Assembly (NCBI GenBank): GCA_030592845.1
Contig: JAUVII010000002.1
Span: 581-64,580 of the forward strand
DNA length: 64,000 bases
Source of the DNA: Candidatus Krumholzibacteriia bacterium
GTDB lineage: Bacteria; Krumholzibacteriota; Krumholzibacteriia; LZORAL124-64-63
Reading direction: 5' to 3'
The notes under the pieces are model-generated. The model did not search any database, was not told the origin of the DNA, and was given only the letters and a program-made list of their open reading frames with translations. Of the stretch, positions 27,859 through 58,338 are shown piece after piece (positions within the stretch are counted from its first letter, which is position 1; every line of letters begins with the position of its first letter). The translations under genes were made by a program, and so were the position numbers.

Positions 27859-28733
27859 GACAGTCTCCCTTCTTCACTTTGCAGGGATTTGATGGCGTTG
27901 ATGAGGACTTCGGGCTGTTCCTCGAAAATGAAATGACCCGCCTTGGGAACGGGCTGAACCGAGAACCGCGACAACCCCGCGCGCAGGATGTCGATTTCCT
28001 CGGCGGTCACCGAACCGGAATGGGGTGCCTGGCCTGCCAGCAGCAGGACCGGACTGGAAATATTGATGAGGTTTTCCTGCAGGGATTCGGGTTCCACGGC
28101 CCTCGCCATGGCACCGAGCGCGGCGATGAACCGATTCAGATCACCGTCGATATTCTTGAGGTAGCGGCCCAGGGTGCGCCGGTCGATCCAGGACCTGTCG
28201 CCCGAAGCCTCTTCCAGGTTGCTCTTGTATTTGTCCCGCAAGAGGCGTCCGCCACCCAGCTTGGCGACCACCGAGGCAAATTTCAGGGACCTGGCCACCG
28301 TCGGGGTGGCCGCCGATTCGTTGGGGCCGCCCTCGACCGAAACCACCGCCTTGACCAACTCCGGCCGACGGTAGGCAAGCCTGAGGGCCACCGAAGCGGA
28401 AACCCCGTGGCCCACGATGATGGCCCGCTTCAAATCCATTCCGTCCATAACGGCCGCCACCCGGTCCGCCTGGCCGGTCAGGGAGTAGTCCGCCTCCCTG
28501 GGCCTGCTGGAGGATCCGATGCCCAACGGTTCGATGATGACCGTCTGGAAGCCGGAATCATTGAGGGGGGAAACGATTTTCCTGTAACCATAAGCGCAGC
28601 CGGATAACCCCGGCAGCAGTACCACGGGATCCCCGGTTCCCGCTGAAATAACCGTCAGAACCTGTTCGGGAGCGACTTCAACCGTCTGCACCGTCCCCAG
28701 ATTCAACATCAGTAACAGCATCAATGTCGTCAT
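27846..28733 (-). CDS. Secreted alpha/beta-hydrolase-fold protein with non-canonical nucleophile elbow
   Basis: Signal-like N-terminus. Fold blocks VVLLPGLSG and the C-terminal AGHFIFEEQP (catalytic His region). The nucleophile elbow reads VGHGVSAS instead of GHSxG. Confidence 0.75.
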   Translation of the reverse strand: MTTLMLLLMLNLGTVQTVEVAPEQVLTVISAGTGDPVVLLPGLSGCAYGYRKIVSPLNDSGFQTVIIEPLGIGSSSRPREADYSLTGQADRVAAVMDGMDLKRAIIVGHGVSASVALRLAYRRPELVKAVVSVEGGPNESAATPTVARSLKFASVVAKLGGGRLLRDKYKSNLEEASGDRSWIDRRTLGRYLKNIDGDLNRFIAALGAMARAVEPESLQENLINISSPVLLLAGQAPHSGSVTAEEIDILRAGLSRFSVQPVPKAGHFIFEEQPEVLINAIKSLQSEEGRLSCAR

Positions 28734-29082
28734 GGGTTCCCCCCCTTGATATCACGAATCTTTTCTCCTGATCCGCGGGTTTATCGATTTCAAGGGGGAT
28801 TTTGCAAGGCAAGGACCGGGCAATATTTTTTCACCGAACAAATTTCAATTAATTTATTACCAACAACTTACATATCGCCTCGACGAAATCACGAAACATT
28901 TCCAACCCAGGTTTTCACCCAAAAAGTATGTTTTATTAAACACCCCGGTAAGCCCAATCACACACATTTCTTAGGTTGTGCCTCTGGAATTGTGTATGAC
29001 CAGAACACAGCCTTTTCGACGGTTCCAGGCCCGCTGGGGTATTGGATATCATTGCATAAAAGTCCCCCGGGGGTTCCTCCGG

Positions 29083-29102
29083 TGACAATATATATGTTGT
29101 CA
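29083..29102. promoter_or_regulatory. 20-bp palindrome, operator-like (site 1)
   Basis: TGACAATATATATGTTGTCA, i.e. TGACAA-N8-TTGTCA. Confidence 0.5.
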
Positions 29103-29114
29103 GAATCTTGTTTT

Positions 29115-29134
29115 TGACAATAAATATGTTGTCA
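29115..29134. promoter_or_regulatory. 20-bp palindrome, operator-like (site 2), overlapping a TTGACA hexamer
   Basis: TGACAATAAATATGTTGTCA differs from site 1 at one central base. Centres are 32 bp apart. TTGACA at 29114-29119 is followed 15-16 nt later by ATAATT/TAATTC. Confidence 0.5.
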
Positions 29135-29191
29135 ATAATTCAGAAATGACCCAGTTGAATTTTAATAACTTGGAAACAAACGACATAGCTC

Positions 29192-29215
29192 AAAAAAGTG
29201 CCCCGGGGGGCACTT
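29192..29215 (-). terminator. Rho-independent terminator (minus strand)
   Basis: On the minus strand the sequence reads AAGTGCCCC-CC-GGGGCACTT followed by TTTTG. It lies ~260 nt downstream of the 29475..30329 gene. Confidence 0.6.
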
Positions 29216-29357
29216 AGAAAAAATACAAGCTGTTGATAATAAATGATTTAAAGAGCTAAAAGTCCAACCAGGGGTCATACGGACCAAACACATTTTCAGA
29301 CCCACAACACCATTCTTTACGGGCAGCCTTCAGTGCTCGTGGGTTTCGGCCACTTGC

Positions 29358-29485
29358 TGCTTGGGTAGTCGGTTCGGGCATCGGCCCTCAGAAAAAAAGA
29401 TCCGGGTAATCCGCAGGGCCGAAGGCCTGAGGACATCCCGGATCTTTTTTTCTGAGGGCCGATGCCCACATCGATTACCCAAGCA
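29358..29485. repeat. 128-nt long inverted repeat / extended hairpin overlapping a stop codon
   Basis: Perfect 31-bp arms: GGGCATCGGCCCTCAGAAAAAAAGATCCGGG (29376-29406) and its exact complement (29437-29467). The 30-nt spacer has a small apical stem of its own (GGCC gaa GGCC, 29417-29427). Outer 10-bp arms TGCTTGGGTA (29358-67) / TACCCAAGCA (29476-85) include the TAA stop at 29475-77. Confidence 0.85.
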
Positions 29486-48249: not shown

Positions 48250-48362
48250 GGGTTGGTTTGGGATTGCGGGAATTTGACGATAAGGTTGTGGCTCTGAAAA
48301 TGTGTCCGGATTTGGTGGAGGGGCGTAGATGCTGTTTTATCCAGCGAATATGACAGTTTGTC

Positions 48363-48394
48363 AAAAAGAGGTGCCCCCGGGGGCACCTCTTTTT
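48363..48394. terminator. Perfect 32-nt palindromic bidirectional terminator
   Basis: AAAAAGAGGTGCCCCC/GGGGGCACCTCTTTTT: a GC stem flanked by A5 and T5. Confidence 0.75.
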
Positions 48395-48550
48395 GATGTC
48401 TAAGCTGTTCCTACTGCCAGACACAATTTCGGAGGCACAACCAATGATATTGGTGACCGGCTGCAGAAAAACCTCCCCACTGTCCTAAACAAGCCCAACA
48501 TGCTACCCTGATTTCCCCCAACACTACGACTCACCCCGAAAGGCCTCCTT

Positions 48551-54844: not shown

Positions 54845-57817
54845 TCAGGAACAACCGGTCGTAGCTCCACAATTATGACATTTGTAGCAGGCTCCGCTGC
54901 GCACCGTCACCGAACCGCATTCGGGACAGGGCGGGCTGTCCGCCTGCTGCTGATAAATTGCCTGTTCGACTTCCATCGTGATGCGGGTCGGGCCGCCGGC
55001 GGAAGCCTCCATGGCCCTCAGGCCCGTGGCCGACCTCATTTCCTTTTCCTTGAGGGAAAGGGCTTCCCGGGTGTCGTCGGCGCCGTCGGGCAAGGTGCCG
55101 TCCGCGTCACCGGCGTGTTCCCCGAATTTCAGATCCATCCAGCGGAAGATATAATCCATCACCGATTTGGCGATGGGAATATTGGGATTGCTGGTGAACC
55201 CGCTGGGCTCGAACCGCGCGTGGCAGAACTTGTTGATCAGGACCTTCAACGGCACGCCGTACTGCAGCATGATCGACACGCTGGTGGCGAAACTGTCCAT
55301 CAGGCCGCTGACCACGGAGCCTTCCTTGGCCATGGAGATGAACATCTCGCCGGGTTTGCCGTTGGGGTACAGACCGATGGTGAGGTAACCCTCGTGACCC
55401 CCGATGGAGAATTTGTGGGTCACGGCCTGACGTTCGTCCGGCAGGCGCACCCGCTTGGGTTTGGGAGGCGCGCTGTGATCATCCACCTTGACCGGTTCGC
55501 TCGCCTTGTTCCCGGTGTTCAAAGGTTGCAGGCGTTTGGAGTTGTCGCGGTAGATGGCCACGGCCTTCAGGCCCATCTTCCAGGCTTCCATGTAGGTGAT
55601 GGCGATTTCATCCACCGTGGCCTCGGTCGGCAGGTTCACCGTCTTGCTGATGGCGCCGGACAGGAAGGGCTGCACCGCCGACATCATGCGCAGATGGCCC
55701 ATGTAATGGATGGACCTGACGCCGTTGGCCGGCCGGAAGGCGCAATCGAACACCGGCAGGTGCTCCTCCTTGAGATCGGGGGCGCCTTCGATGGTTTCGT
55801 GCTCGGCGATATAATTGGTGATCGACTCGATTTCCTCGTCCTCGTAACCCAGGTTTTCCAGGGCGTCGGGCACAGAATTATTGACGATCTTCATGATGCC
55901 GCCGTCGACCAGCTTCTTGTACTTCACCAGGGCGATGTCGGGTTCGACGCCGGTGGTGTCGCAATCCATGAGGAAACCGATGGTGCCGGTGGGCGCCAGA
56001 ACGGTGACCTGGCTGTTGCGGTACCCATAGTCGTGACCCAGGGCATAGGCTTCGCGCCAGACCGTCTCCGCCTCGTCGAGCAGATTCTCGGGCACCCGGT
56101 TGGCGGTGATGCCGTTGACGGCGGCCCGGTGCATGCGGATGACCTCGAGCATGGGCTCGCGGTTTTCCTCGTACCCCTCGAAGGGACCGATCTGGCTGGC
56201 GATCTCCGCCGAAGTCAGATAGGCCTGGCCGCACATCAGGGCGGTGATGGCCGCGGCAAAATCCCGGCCGGTGTTGCTGTCGTAGGGCAGGCCCCGGTCC
56301 ATGAGCAGGGCGCCAAGATTGGCGTAACCCAGACCCAGCGGACGGAATTTGTGACTGTTGGCCTCGATCTCCTCGCGGGGGTAACTGCTGTTCCCCACCA
56401 GGATTTCCATGGCCAGGGTCATGACCCGGCTGGCGTAGCGGAAGGATCCCGAGTCGAATTCCCCATCTTCGGTGCGGAACTTCATCAGGTTCAGGGAAGC
56501 CAGGTTGCAGGCCGAGTTGTCCAGGAACATGTACTCGCTGCAAGGGTTCGACGCGTGGATCCGGTCGGTGTTGCGGCAAGTGTGCCAGTCGTTGATCGTG
56601 GTGTCGAACTGCATGCCCGGATCGCCGCAGACATGGGTGCCCTCGGCGATCATGTTCATCAGATCGCGGGCCTTGTACGTATCCATGGGCCGGCCATCGA
56701 CCACCGCGAGGGTGGTCCATTCGCCGTCGTCCTCCACCGCGCGCATGAACTCGTTGCTCACACGCACCGAGTTGTTGCTGTTCTGGAAGAAGACGGAGTT
56801 GTATGCCTCGCCCCCGAAAGAACCGTCGTAACCCTGATCCATGAGGGCCCAGGCCTTCTTTTCCTCGTTCACCTTGCAGTTGATGAATTCCTCGATGTCG
56901 GGATGTTCGACGTCCAGGATGACCATCTTGGCGGCGCGACGAGTTTTCCCGCCGCTCTTTATAACACCCGCAAAGGCGTCAAAACCGCGCATGAACGATA
57001 CCGGGCCGCTGGCCGATCCGCCGGCCGAAAGGCTTTCACGACTGGACCGCAGCGTGGACAGGTTGCTGCCGGTGCCGCTGCCGTACTTGAACAACAGGCC
57101 TTCGGTTTTGGCCAGATCCAGGATACTGGCCATGGAATCCTCGACCGCGTTGATGAAACAGGCCGAGCACTGGGGCCTTTTTTCCACACCGACATTGAAC
57201 CAGACAGGTGAATTGAAGGCGGCCAGCTGGTTGACCAGGAGGTGACGAAGCTCCGCGCGGAATATTTCGGCGTCGACGGCGGTGGCGAAAATTCCGTCCT
57301 TGATACCCCAGTCAGCGATGGTATTGCCCACACGATCGATGAGCTGGCGCACGGAGGTCTCACGCTCGGGGGTGCCCTGACCGCCCCGGAAATATTTGGA
57401 GACGACCACGTTGGTGGCCATCTGGGTCCAGTTTTTGGGGATTTCGCAGTTGTCCTGCCGGAACAGGTTTTCACCCTTGTCGTTGACAATGGTGGCCGAG
57501 CGCATTTCCCACTCGATGGCGTCGAAAGGATCGACACCCTCGGTGGTGTATCGCCGCTCAATGGTCATGCCCTTGCCCTTGACCCGGACCGAATCGGAGC
57601 TCTCGGCCTGGTGAACGGCGAGGCCTTCATCGGCCAGGCCTTTCACGTCCACACCGTCCAATTCCAGACGGGCGGCCGCCTTGGCGGGTTCGGTGGGTTT
57701 GATTTGTTTTTTGGTAGCCATGTTGTCGGGAAGAATGTCCTTGTGAGCTTTCAAAGTGGTGGAATCTTTTTGTTTGATGCGATCCGCCATGATCCTCGCT
57801 CCTTTGTTCAGATCCAT
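54845..57817 (-). CDS. nrdJ: Class II (adenosylcobalamin-dependent) ribonucleotide reductase
   Basis: SNPCSEYMFLDNSACNLASLNL active-site block. C-terminal Cys cluster CPECGS...CYKCHNCG. 990 aa. ATG 57817 follows GGAG. Confidence 0.9.
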   Translation of the reverse strand: MDLNKGARIMADRIKQKDSTTLKAHKDILPDNMATKKQIKPTEPAKAAARLELDGVDVKGLADEGLAVHQAESSDSVRVKGKGMTIERRYTTEGVDPFDAIEWEMRSATIVNDKGENLFRQDNCEIPKNWTQMATNVVVSKYFRGGQGTPERETSVRQLIDRVGNTIADWGIKDGIFATAVDAEIFRAELRHLLVNQLAAFNSPVWFNVGVEKRPQCSACFINAVEDSMASILDLAKTEGLLFKYGSGTGSNLSTLRSSRESLSAGGSASGPVSFMRGFDAFAGVIKSGGKTRRAAKMVILDVEHPDIEEFINCKVNEEKKAWALMDQGYDGSFGGEAYNSVFFQNSNNSVRVSNEFMRAVEDDGEWTTLAVVDGRPMDTYKARDLMNMIAEGTHVCGDPGMQFDTTINDWHTCRNTDRIHASNPCSEYMFLDNSACNLASLNLMKFRTEDGEFDSGSFRYASRVMTLAMEILVGNSSYPREEIEANSHKFRPLGLGYANLGALLMDRGLPYDSNTGRDFAAAITALMCGQAYLTSAEIASQIGPFEGYEENREPMLEVIRMHRAAVNGITANRVPENLLDEAETVWREAYALGHDYGYRNSQVTVLAPTGTIGFLMDCDTTGVEPDIALVKYKKLVDGGIMKIVNNSVPDALENLGYEDEEIESITNYIAEHETIEGAPDLKEEHLPVFDCAFRPANGVRSIHYMGHLRMMSAVQPFLSGAISKTVNLPTEATVDEIAITYMEAWKMGLKAVAIYRDNSKRLQPLNTGNKASEPVKVDDHSAPPKPKRVRLPDERQAVTHKFSIGGHEGYLTIGLYPNGKPGEMFISMAKEGSVVSGLMDSFATSVSIMLQYGVPLKVLINKFCHARFEPSGFTSNPNIPIAKSVMDYIFRWMDLKFGEHAGDADGTLPDGADDTREALSLKEKEMRSATGLRAMEASAGGPTRITMEVEQAIYQQQADSPPCPECGSVTVRSGACYKCHNCGATTGCS

Positions 57818-57955: not shown

Positions 57956-57972
57956 ACCCCAATATATGGGGT
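57956..57972. promoter_or_regulatory. NrdR-box-like palindrome upstream of nrdJ
   Basis: ACCCCAATATATGGGGT has the AT-rich ATATAT core and C/G flanks of the NrdR box consensus acaCwAtATaTwGtgt. Confidence 0.45.
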
Positions 57973-58338
57973 AATCCGGCAGCCATTACCACACCCCCTT
58001 GTGGGTGTGTACGGACAATAATATTTACACCCGGTGGGCATCAAAACAAATATTTACAGCGGGGGTTTTACCGTCCGGCCCGCGATTTGAAACCCAAAAA
58101 AAATTGCGTTAAACCTTTGTTCCGGTCCCGTATGGGGCATTTACTATTTTTTGCAAAGAATTCACCTATGATCACGCCTCAACCCTCCCGGAACATCTGT
58201 CCAAAAACAATCAATCCCGGCCTTCGAAATAACACCTTGGTGTTAAAGGAAATATGATCAAAGGCCCGGCGGCCGTTTCACCAGGCGGGCCAACCGGTCC
58301 GGACACCCTGAAAAACACCCTTTATGATGAGTGAGAAA

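Follow-up and report, generated by a model that had tools for sequence, protein, structure and literature searches.

A predicted operator pair of mobile mystery protein A repressors carried by a miniature inverted-repeat transposable element in a Krumholzibacteriia genome

The closest known counterpart of the locus described here is the mobile mystery A/B module, in which a protein of family TIGR02612 (mobile mystery protein A) is encoded together with a TIGR02613-type Fic protein, for example on plasmid pBb323S2a of Bradyrhizobium barranii (WP_166354031 and WP_166354033). The literature on mobile mystery protein A that we found consists of passing mentions, with no published function or operator. 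Here, we describe a pair of 20 bp palindromes in a 64,000-nucleotide stretch of DNA from a Candidatus Krumholzibacteriia bacterium (assembly GCA_030592845.1, contig JAUVII010000002.1; this whole stretch is called the window below). The palindromes are predicted to be operators of the orphan mobile mystery protein A repressors of this genus, delivered to their present position by a miniature inverted-repeat transposable element (MITE). We put the probability of this reading at roughly 0.7; our confidence in it and in its rivals is not meant to sum to one. A predicted DNA target and an operator design are thereby assigned to a family that is widespread on plasmids and other mobile elements.

Two further systems are useful for comparison. 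The operators of phage 434 have the form ACAA-N6-TTGT, and the Correia elements of Neisseria are MITEs with outward-facing promoters, an IHF site and a terminator-like hairpin. The palindromes in the window share the ACAA/TTGT half-site core with the operators of 434 cI and Cro, and in both systems several neighbouring operators overlap (here, predicted) divergent promoters. They differ from the 434 operator in being 20 bp rather than 14 bp long (ACAA-N8-TTGT with flanking TG/CA) and in their period of 32-33 bp. The HTH of the 434 repressor is also the closest match of the candidate regulator among sequences of solved structure (E = 0.011), aligned over helix 2 and the recognition helix, beginning TQQS. 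Unlike the 434 protein, the regulator appears to have one more helix at its N-terminus and a C-terminal half of ~60 amino acids that is helical, as seen in an AlphaFold2 model from a three-sequence alignment that is of low confidence (pLDDT 62, pTM 0.38). Correia elements resemble the element described here in being short, non-autonomous and intergenic, in having terminal inverted repeats and nested or modular lengths, and in their promoter-like, protein-binding and hairpin features. Here, in contrast, the cargo would be the operator pair of a specific repressor together with a short unit, and the partner insertion sequence (IS) encodes an uncharacterized 369-residue 'transposase-like' protein and is associated with a 9 bp target duplication. 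The locus would thus combine two known kinds of arrangement, autoregulation of the Xre/antitoxin type and MITEs with regulatory cargo. It provides a bacterial example of the operator pair of a specific repressor being spread by a MITE, the kind of event believed to rewire regulons, of which few cases are well described in prokaryotes.

The two palindromes (boxes 1 and 2; Table 1) lie in a spacer of 741 bp with a GC content of 44.9%, compared with 59.1% in the window. On one side of the spacer a minus-strand alpha/beta-hydrolase-SDR-PAP2-SDR operon begins, with its ATG at 28733, and on the other side a minus-strand gene for a 284-residue protein ends with its stop codon. The boxes differ at one central base, their starts are 32 bp apart and a gap of 12 bp separates them. 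The T preceding box 2 and the start of that box together form the hexamer TTGACA (29114-29119), and ATAATT follows the box at 29135-29140. On re-reading, the sequences, coordinates, single-base difference and 32 bp spacing given in a preliminary description of this DNA are all exact, and the low-GC spacer and the TTGACA hexamer that it reported are likewise confirmed.

If only the window is considered, the degenerate pattern does not reach significance (three matches with at most two mismatches, 1.7 expected). Genome scans covered the whole assembly to which the window belongs (G000; 3.70 Mb in 363 contigs, 59.5% GC, 82% complete). Exact TGACAA-N8-TTGTCA is found 14 times in this assembly, against 0.08 expected from base composition, and when spacer lengths of 0-15 bp are compared enrichment is seen at 8 bp only. 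The genome-wide scan with a position weight matrix that had been proposed as a check does reveal further occurrences, ~30 sites at ~17 loci, with none in the reversed genome used as a control. The sites are mostly paired at exactly 32 bp, triplets occur at two loci and the consensus is TGACAA-YAWAYATR-TTGTCA. The palindrome pair is highly non-random. The layout over three helical turns, which had been noted as typical of cooperative repressor binding, emerges as a conserved design feature; the 12 bp gap between boxes is constant in length and variable in sequence. The proposal that these are operator-type sites for a dimeric repressor is supported as a reading. A shorter palindrome at 48351-48363, TGACAGTTTGTCA, had been described as related. 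It does exist, but it sits in a 159 bp short MITE and is not kept in other short copies, and its resemblance to the boxes is on this evidence a coincidence.

The candidate regulator is found on contigs other than that of the window. G000 encodes three TIGR02612 paralogs, the third of which is cut by a contig end. The two complete paralogs are Xre-type HTH proteins (HTH_3) of 156 amino acids and score 144.4 and 162.9 bits against a TIGR02612 cut-off of 122.6. Single or degenerate box sites are found immediately upstream of both genes, and two to three boxes stand 30-70 bp before the ATG of the TIGR02612 gene at two loci in G000 and in the sister species G001, G003 and G004. In these three species the ortholog (xre) occupies the same place and is followed by a fused MFS/spermidine-synthase gene. 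The xre orthologs are divergently paired with the same hairpin-ended short unit in four species.

The distribution of the boxes within the genus follows that of this gene. There are 25 boxes in G000, 15 in G001, 12 in G003, 13 in G004 and eight in G005; G002 has one box-like site with two mismatches and no xre gene, and no boxes are found in G006, in G007 or in 33 genomes of other genera. The xre gene is present in G000, G001, G003 and G004, and was not found in G002, G006, G007 or G005, the last genome being 76% complete. The terminal repeats of the MITE occur in all eight species of the genus and in 13 other genera. Because the boxes track the xre gene while the terminal repeats are far more widely distributed, the boxes follow the regulator and not the transposon.

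Similar arrays precede relatives of the gene elsewhere. A search for the regulator in named genomes returned two distant matches only, one of them in Ca. Tenebribacter, where three GTCAAT-N6-ATTGAC palindromes, spaced at 33 bp, immediately precede the ATG of the gene for a homologue with 42% identity. Seven genomes from the same phylum as the window (G195, G080, G078, G072, G047, G081 and G082) each contain three in-phase AT-centred palindromes, in G195 as three copies of TACAAYATATATGTTGTA. The annotated mobile mystery protein A/B operon of the Bradyrhizobium plasmid comes with four ATAAG-N6-CTTAT sites at a spacing of exactly 33 bp, and on a Rhizobium plasmid there are four or five ATCAG-N8-CTGAT sites at 32-33 bp. 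The half-site changes together with the recognition helix: (K/Q)QSVAR goes with GACAA, QQAVAR with TACAA, KQ(N/W/Q)(I/V)S with GT(C/A)AA, R(S/N)S(I/V)SA with GTCATAG or GTAATAC, and P(P/Q)SLQR with CAGCAT. The in-phase palindrome array would appear to be a previously undescribed operator design of the whole family. Position, phyletic pattern and the co-variation of protein and operator, all read from sequence, show that the boxes and xre are linked. The orphan sites are most likely to be bound by one or other of the TIGR02612 paralogs of G000. The preliminary description had named a PAS-LuxR protein as a candidate regulator; nothing points to this protein, and the evidence indicates a TIGR02612 Xre-family protein instead.

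Outside the genus a Fic partner accompanies the regulator at all eight sampled homologue loci and on the Bradyrhizobium plasmid. It is a protein of ~195 amino acids with the motif HPFxNGNGRHxR, encoded 0-44 bp after the protein A gene. No Fic gene follows xre in G000, and tblastn finds none anywhere in this assembly (best E = 0.23; genome 82% complete). Judged by gene content, mobile mystery protein A is an orphan in this genus, lacking its usual Fic toxin partner, which suggests that the regulator can persist after loss of that partner. In comparison with the mobile mystery A/B module, the G000 protein passes the TIGR02612 cut-off and its gene is preceded by in-phase AT-centred palindromes. 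The module in this genus differs in the missing Fic partner, in the location of the gene beside the MFS/spermidine-synthase gene and a divergent hairpin-ended short unit, and in the amplification of the operators to ~15 loci.

In the region C134:480-5529 one of the paralogs has the gene for a 931-residue TPR-CHAT protein on one side and, on the other, a convergent toxin-antitoxin pair (AbiEii/AbiEi). This locus looks like a defence or mobile island, unlike that of the syntenic chromosomal paralog on C160.

The boxes are part of a larger repeated module, of which we aligned 13 copies. Its order is fixed: a pseudo-palindrome GGATAT..ATATCA is followed by an A-run with a GC hairpin, box 1 and the 12 bp gap, and then by the T and box 2, ~60 nt with the core TTAAYAYRTTGAAAACAAAC, a second GC hairpin GTGCCCCCGGGGGCAC and TTTT. 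Column identity is 0.90-0.91 in the boxes and 0.81-0.87 in the hairpins, and falls to 0.52 in the gap between the boxes and to 0.4-0.7 elsewhere. The core of the short unit, GAAAACAAAC, reaches 0.91 and thus equals the boxes. The short unit always occurs with boxes and never away from them, and is a candidate for either the body of a small RNA or DNA to which a protein binds. In 12 of the 13 copies box 2 is preceded by the T needed for TTGACA. Hairpin 1 is terminator-like for leftward transcription, and its counterpart in the C70 copy is scored as a minus-strand terminator. The plus-strand hairpin that had been reported at 29196-29215 is found at ~29198-29213, where it ends the conserved short unit in ~12 copies; in the window copy its T-run is lost (CTTAGAAAAAA, compared with GCACTTTT in other copies). 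The module in the window consists of hairpin, box, box, short unit and hairpin, with no xre gene. A coding function of the short unit was rejected on both strands, as neither reading frames nor start codons are conserved and the copies differ by indels of 1 and 4 nt. The orphan modules are also not plain xre-deletion derivatives, since no hairpin follows xre and the next gene there is the MFS/spermidine-synthase gene.

Table 1. Features of the mobile element and its module, in window coordinates; identity is the mean column identity over the 13 aligned modules.
Feature	Sequence	Position	Strand	Remarks
MITE-like element		28974-29309	unstranded	336 bp; contains the whole module; lineage-specific insertion
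Left terminal inverted repeat	GGTTGTGCCTCTGGAATTGTGT	28974-28995	+	22 bp; one mismatch to the family consensus
Inner pseudo-palindrome	CTGGGGTATTGGATATCATTGC	29034-29055	+	Inner inverted repeat of the nested repeat family
GC hairpin 1 (core)	CCCCCGGGGG	29062-29075	-	A-run ahead on the + strand; identity 0.87, conserved in all modules
Box 1	TGACAATATATATGTTGTCA	29083-29102	unstranded	Perfect 20 bp palindrome; predicted operator; identity 0.91
Box 2	TGACAATAAATATGTTGTCA	29115-29134	unstranded	Predicted operator; identity 0.90
Short unit	TTAATAACTTGGAAACAAAC (conserved core, 29162-29181)	29135-29197	+	A-rich, unstructured
GC hairpin 2	GTGCCCCGGGGGGCAC	29198-29213	+	A-run before; T-run after in other copies
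Right-arm block	TTGATAATAAATGATTTAA	29233-29251	+	Long MITE form; common to C70, C214, C300, C109 and C256
Right terminal inverted repeat	ACACATTTTCAGACCCACAACA	29288-29309	+	22 bp; decayed, 4-5 mismatches
Short MITE	includes TGACAGTTTGTCA	48284-48442	unstranded	159 bp; same terminal-repeat family; no boxes

The module in the window sits inside a mobile element. A BLAST search of the spacer against G000 shows that 28971-29251 is its only repeated part, and ~280 bp of the element are 84-86% identical to copies in C70, C214 and C300. The terminal-repeat family has ~46 ends in G000, of which ten inward-facing pairs delimit elements of 159, 193, 336-401 and 1,227 bp. The forms of 159-401 bp are multicopy and have no conserved open reading frame (ORF), and the short and medium forms carry no boxes. 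The 1,227 bp copy (C143:5811-7037) has the same 22 bp terminal repeats around an ORF for the 369-residue transposase-like protein, which has an N-terminal zinc-finger/HTH region with a weak match to the N-terminus of the IS1 family; no Pfam DDE domain was found in it. This protein has 3,781 database relatives, mostly encoded alone on contigs of ~1.2-2 kb and labelled only 'transposase-like', and the element may represent an uncatalogued IS family. A paralog of this element is present on C49. In the C300 copy both the terminal repeats and the 9 bp target duplication, TAACTATTC, are perfect. The flanks of the window element match at six of nine positions (CATTTCTTA and CCATTCTTT) and are thus degenerate, and several other copies show no duplication. 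The terminal repeats, the autonomous 1,227 bp copy, the duplication in C300 and the empty orthologous sites described below together show that the 336 bp element is a MITE, by all appearances a non-autonomous IS derivative.

A shared sequence, ACACAATTTCAGAGGCACAACC, was considered as a 5' leader or Shine-Dalgarno element and rejected, as it is the terminal inverted repeat. The modules on C222, C287 and C122 have no outer terminal repeats and are bordered on both sides by the inner pseudo-palindrome. There is accordingly a second, nested repeat layer, in which the inverted repeat CTGGGATATTGGATATCACTGC surrounds either a lone GC hairpin (C150:4130-4322) or the whole box module (the same three contigs), and which suggests a modular assembly of these intergenic repeats. 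The contigs of G000 often break inside MITEs (for example C64, C256, C300/C180, C39 and C140, the end flank of C300 continuing on C180), and this repeat family is thus a main cause of the fragmentation of the assembly.

The age of the insertion can be judged from the sister species. In G001, G004, G005 and G007 synteny extends over the ortholog of the alpha/beta-hydrolase gene (75-83% identity) and the downstream membrane-protein gene, and both ends of the orthologous spacers can be aligned, the long hairpin at 29358-29485 being among the aligned parts. The block of ~336 bp with its terminal repeats and boxes is absent from the syntenic spacer in all four. Because of this absence, the palindromes are, as far as the spacers tell, a lineage-specific insertion and not the ancestral control region of the lipid-like operon. 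Conservation of the boxes in orthologous spacers, which the preliminary description had named as a check, is therefore not found in these four species; the boxes came with the MITE. For annotation this is a warning that the conspicuous 'regulatory region' seen here is transposon cargo and not the native control of the adjoining envelope-lipid-like operon. The long hairpin lies outside the insertion, next to the MITE, and the orthologous spacers of G001, G004 and G007 have kept it. With its apical ~55 nt repeated on C158, C305, C347 and C23, it belongs to a separate repeat family.

From these features a mechanism can be proposed. One repressor dimer would bind each 20 bp box, and the invariant phasing of 32 bp, corresponding to three turns, would place two dimers on one face of the DNA and allow cooperative binding. 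A distance of 18 bp separates the TTGTCA half of one box from the AT-rich centre of its neighbour, such that each pair of boxes could form interdigitated divergent -35/-10 promoters that the bound repressor would occlude. In the C70 copy the scan does pick up a leftward TTGTCA-18-TATATT element across two boxes (score 10 of 12), followed by a hairpin terminator. For the TTGACA hexamer at 29114-29119, which had been described as part of a possible plus-strand promoter, there is no good -10 partner, and no -10 element passes the scan in the window copy or in the C300 copy. At the locus of the regulator itself, the same arrangement would result in autorepression of xre and in control of the divergent hairpin-ended short unit of ~65-85 nt. 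The module reached the spacer in the window within a non-autonomous MITE after the species had split from its sisters. We infer that the repressor physically binds the boxes, that it does so cooperatively, that promoters are active there and that an RNA exists.

Several observations weigh against the assignment of the palindromes to mobile mystery protein A. G005 has boxes and no detected xre gene (its genome is 76% complete), the xre gene of G001 contains an in-frame stop, and the box at the own promoter of paralog C160a reads AACAA..TTGTT and not GACAA..TTGTC. The low-confidence protein model lends no support to a dimer or tetramer geometry. The scan of the window copy yields neither a sigma-70-like promoter nor a terminator. 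TAAATA and CATATA, its candidate -10 hexamers, lack the conserved final T, and the T-run of hairpin 2 has disappeared. The genes adjoining the ~15 modules have no common function, and the orphan copies of the module may be neutral passengers.

This last point leads to the first of the alternatives, in which the orphan pairs are neutral or sink sites that hitch-hiked on the MITE and at most titrate the repressor, thereby buffering the expression of xre. It is compatible with the operator assignment, and we consider it possible but on balance unlikely. The lack of functional coherence among neighbouring genes, the hairpins on both sides that would insulate the module and the species-specific insertions agree with it, and since the long MITE copies are ~85% identical throughout, conservation among them may reflect recent copying. 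On the other hand, the modules on C240, C222, C103 and C122 have lost the outer repeats or the short unit while their boxes are near-perfect and the 12 bp spacing is exact, and intact boxes in such decayed older copies argue for continued constraint on binding. Also compatible with the operator assignment, upon which it builds without replacing it, is the tentative proposal that the boxes gate a multicopy small RNA of ~65-85 nt that ends at the hairpin at 29198-29213; its probability is clearly below even, although we do not consider it negligible. Its promoter would be either TTGACA at 29114-29119 or TTGTCA at 29097-29102 combined with the AT-rich centre of box 2, and the orphan modules would be ~12 repressor-controlled small RNA genes spread by the MITE. 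The box-like conservation of the core, the strict association of the short unit with boxes and the retained T of TTGACA all fit, as does the fixed distance in most copies between the short unit and a GC hairpin with a T-run. In four species the short unit is moreover kept divergent from xre in intergenic DNA that is otherwise unalignable. Against this, the scan finds no canonical -10, RNAalifold yields only a 4 bp terminator stem with no compensatory changes, there is no Rfam family, and targets complementary to the conserved core are not enriched. Hairpin 2 looks bidirectional, with an A-run before and a T-run after it, and this T-run consists of only four T and is the one lost in the window. 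A scan of the spacer against Rfam gave only spurious miRNA-type matches on the long hairpin and a weak CRISPR-DR match. A still wider scenario, which we consider speculative and rather improbable, is that a domesticated antitoxin-type repressor outlived its Fic toxin, that the MITE copied a two-operator switch together with a small RNA gene to at least a dozen loci, and that interleaved-promoter arrays of 32-33 bp period are the operator design of the whole family. If true, this would be a repressor-controlled multicopy small RNA family with a regulon built by transposition.

The remaining alternatives assign the boxes to other partners. The preliminary description had considered that they act at a distance on the minus-strand operon starting at 28733. 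The module is indeed upstream of and divergent from this operon, and in six of ~10 modules the side with hairpin 1 is turned towards the 5' end of a gene. Such control is nevertheless quite unlikely: the orthologous operons of G001, G004, G005 and G007 have a spacer without the element, and therefore the native operon promoter should be independent of the boxes. In addition, 350 bp separate the boxes from the ATG, with a GC hairpin and TTTT (minus strand) in between. As GC hairpins flank the module on both sides, its effect on the alpha/beta-hydrolase operon is probably small. That the palindromes are sites related to MITE transposition, to which the IS protein or some host factor would bind, has a very slight chance of being correct. 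They do lie within a mobile element, and its putative transposase begins with a zinc-finger and HTH region. However, the IS and its terminal repeats are abundant in the box-less species G002, G006 and G007 and in the 13 other genera, the short and medium MITE forms have no boxes, and boxes also occur away from terminal repeats and at xre promoters; we reject this reading on the phyletic pattern. An identity with NrdR boxes has a probability close to nil. NrdR has the consensus acaCwAtATaTwGtgt, which the inner 16 bp of the boxes (ACAAYATATATRTTGT) resemble, and it is encoded in G000. NrdR boxes come in pairs of 16 bp palindromes with an AT-rich centre and a spacer of 15-16 bp, overlapping promoters upstream of ribonucleotide reductase (RNR) operons, and this geometry is matched both by the 16 bp spacer between the inner 16 bp sequences and by the two AT-centred palindromes with centres about three helical turns apart (PMC12051234). 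The consensus here differs, however, at the specificity positions, and no nrd gene is found beside any of the ~17 box loci. Upstream of the single RNR gene (ATG at 57790, minus strand) there are different palindromes and no TGACAA box. NrdR itself occurs in all eight species of the genus, compared with five for the boxes, and the half-sites co-vary with TIGR02612 proteins across phyla. The wrong loci, the phyletic mismatch and this co-variation exclude NrdR, and the operators of mobile mystery protein A remain the preferred identity of the boxes.

Two further observations concern loci outside the window module. The region upstream of the RNR gene (57956-58058) is itself a candidate NrdR control region. 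It contains the palindromes ACCCCATATATTGGGGT (57956-57972) and ACACCCACAAGGGGGTGT (57991-58008) and, at 58013-58058, TGTAAATATTATTGTCC and TGTAAATATTTGTTTT as a direct pair with a spacing of ~30 bp. The TGACAA box is matched by none of these. At C140:14700-14880 a copy of the module lacks the hairpin-2 segment, and its box-proximal unit continues across the terminal repeat, in which AGAGG occurs, into an ORF of 264 amino acids with no Pfam match that begins 9 nt after this repeat. This makes promoter donation by the element possible.

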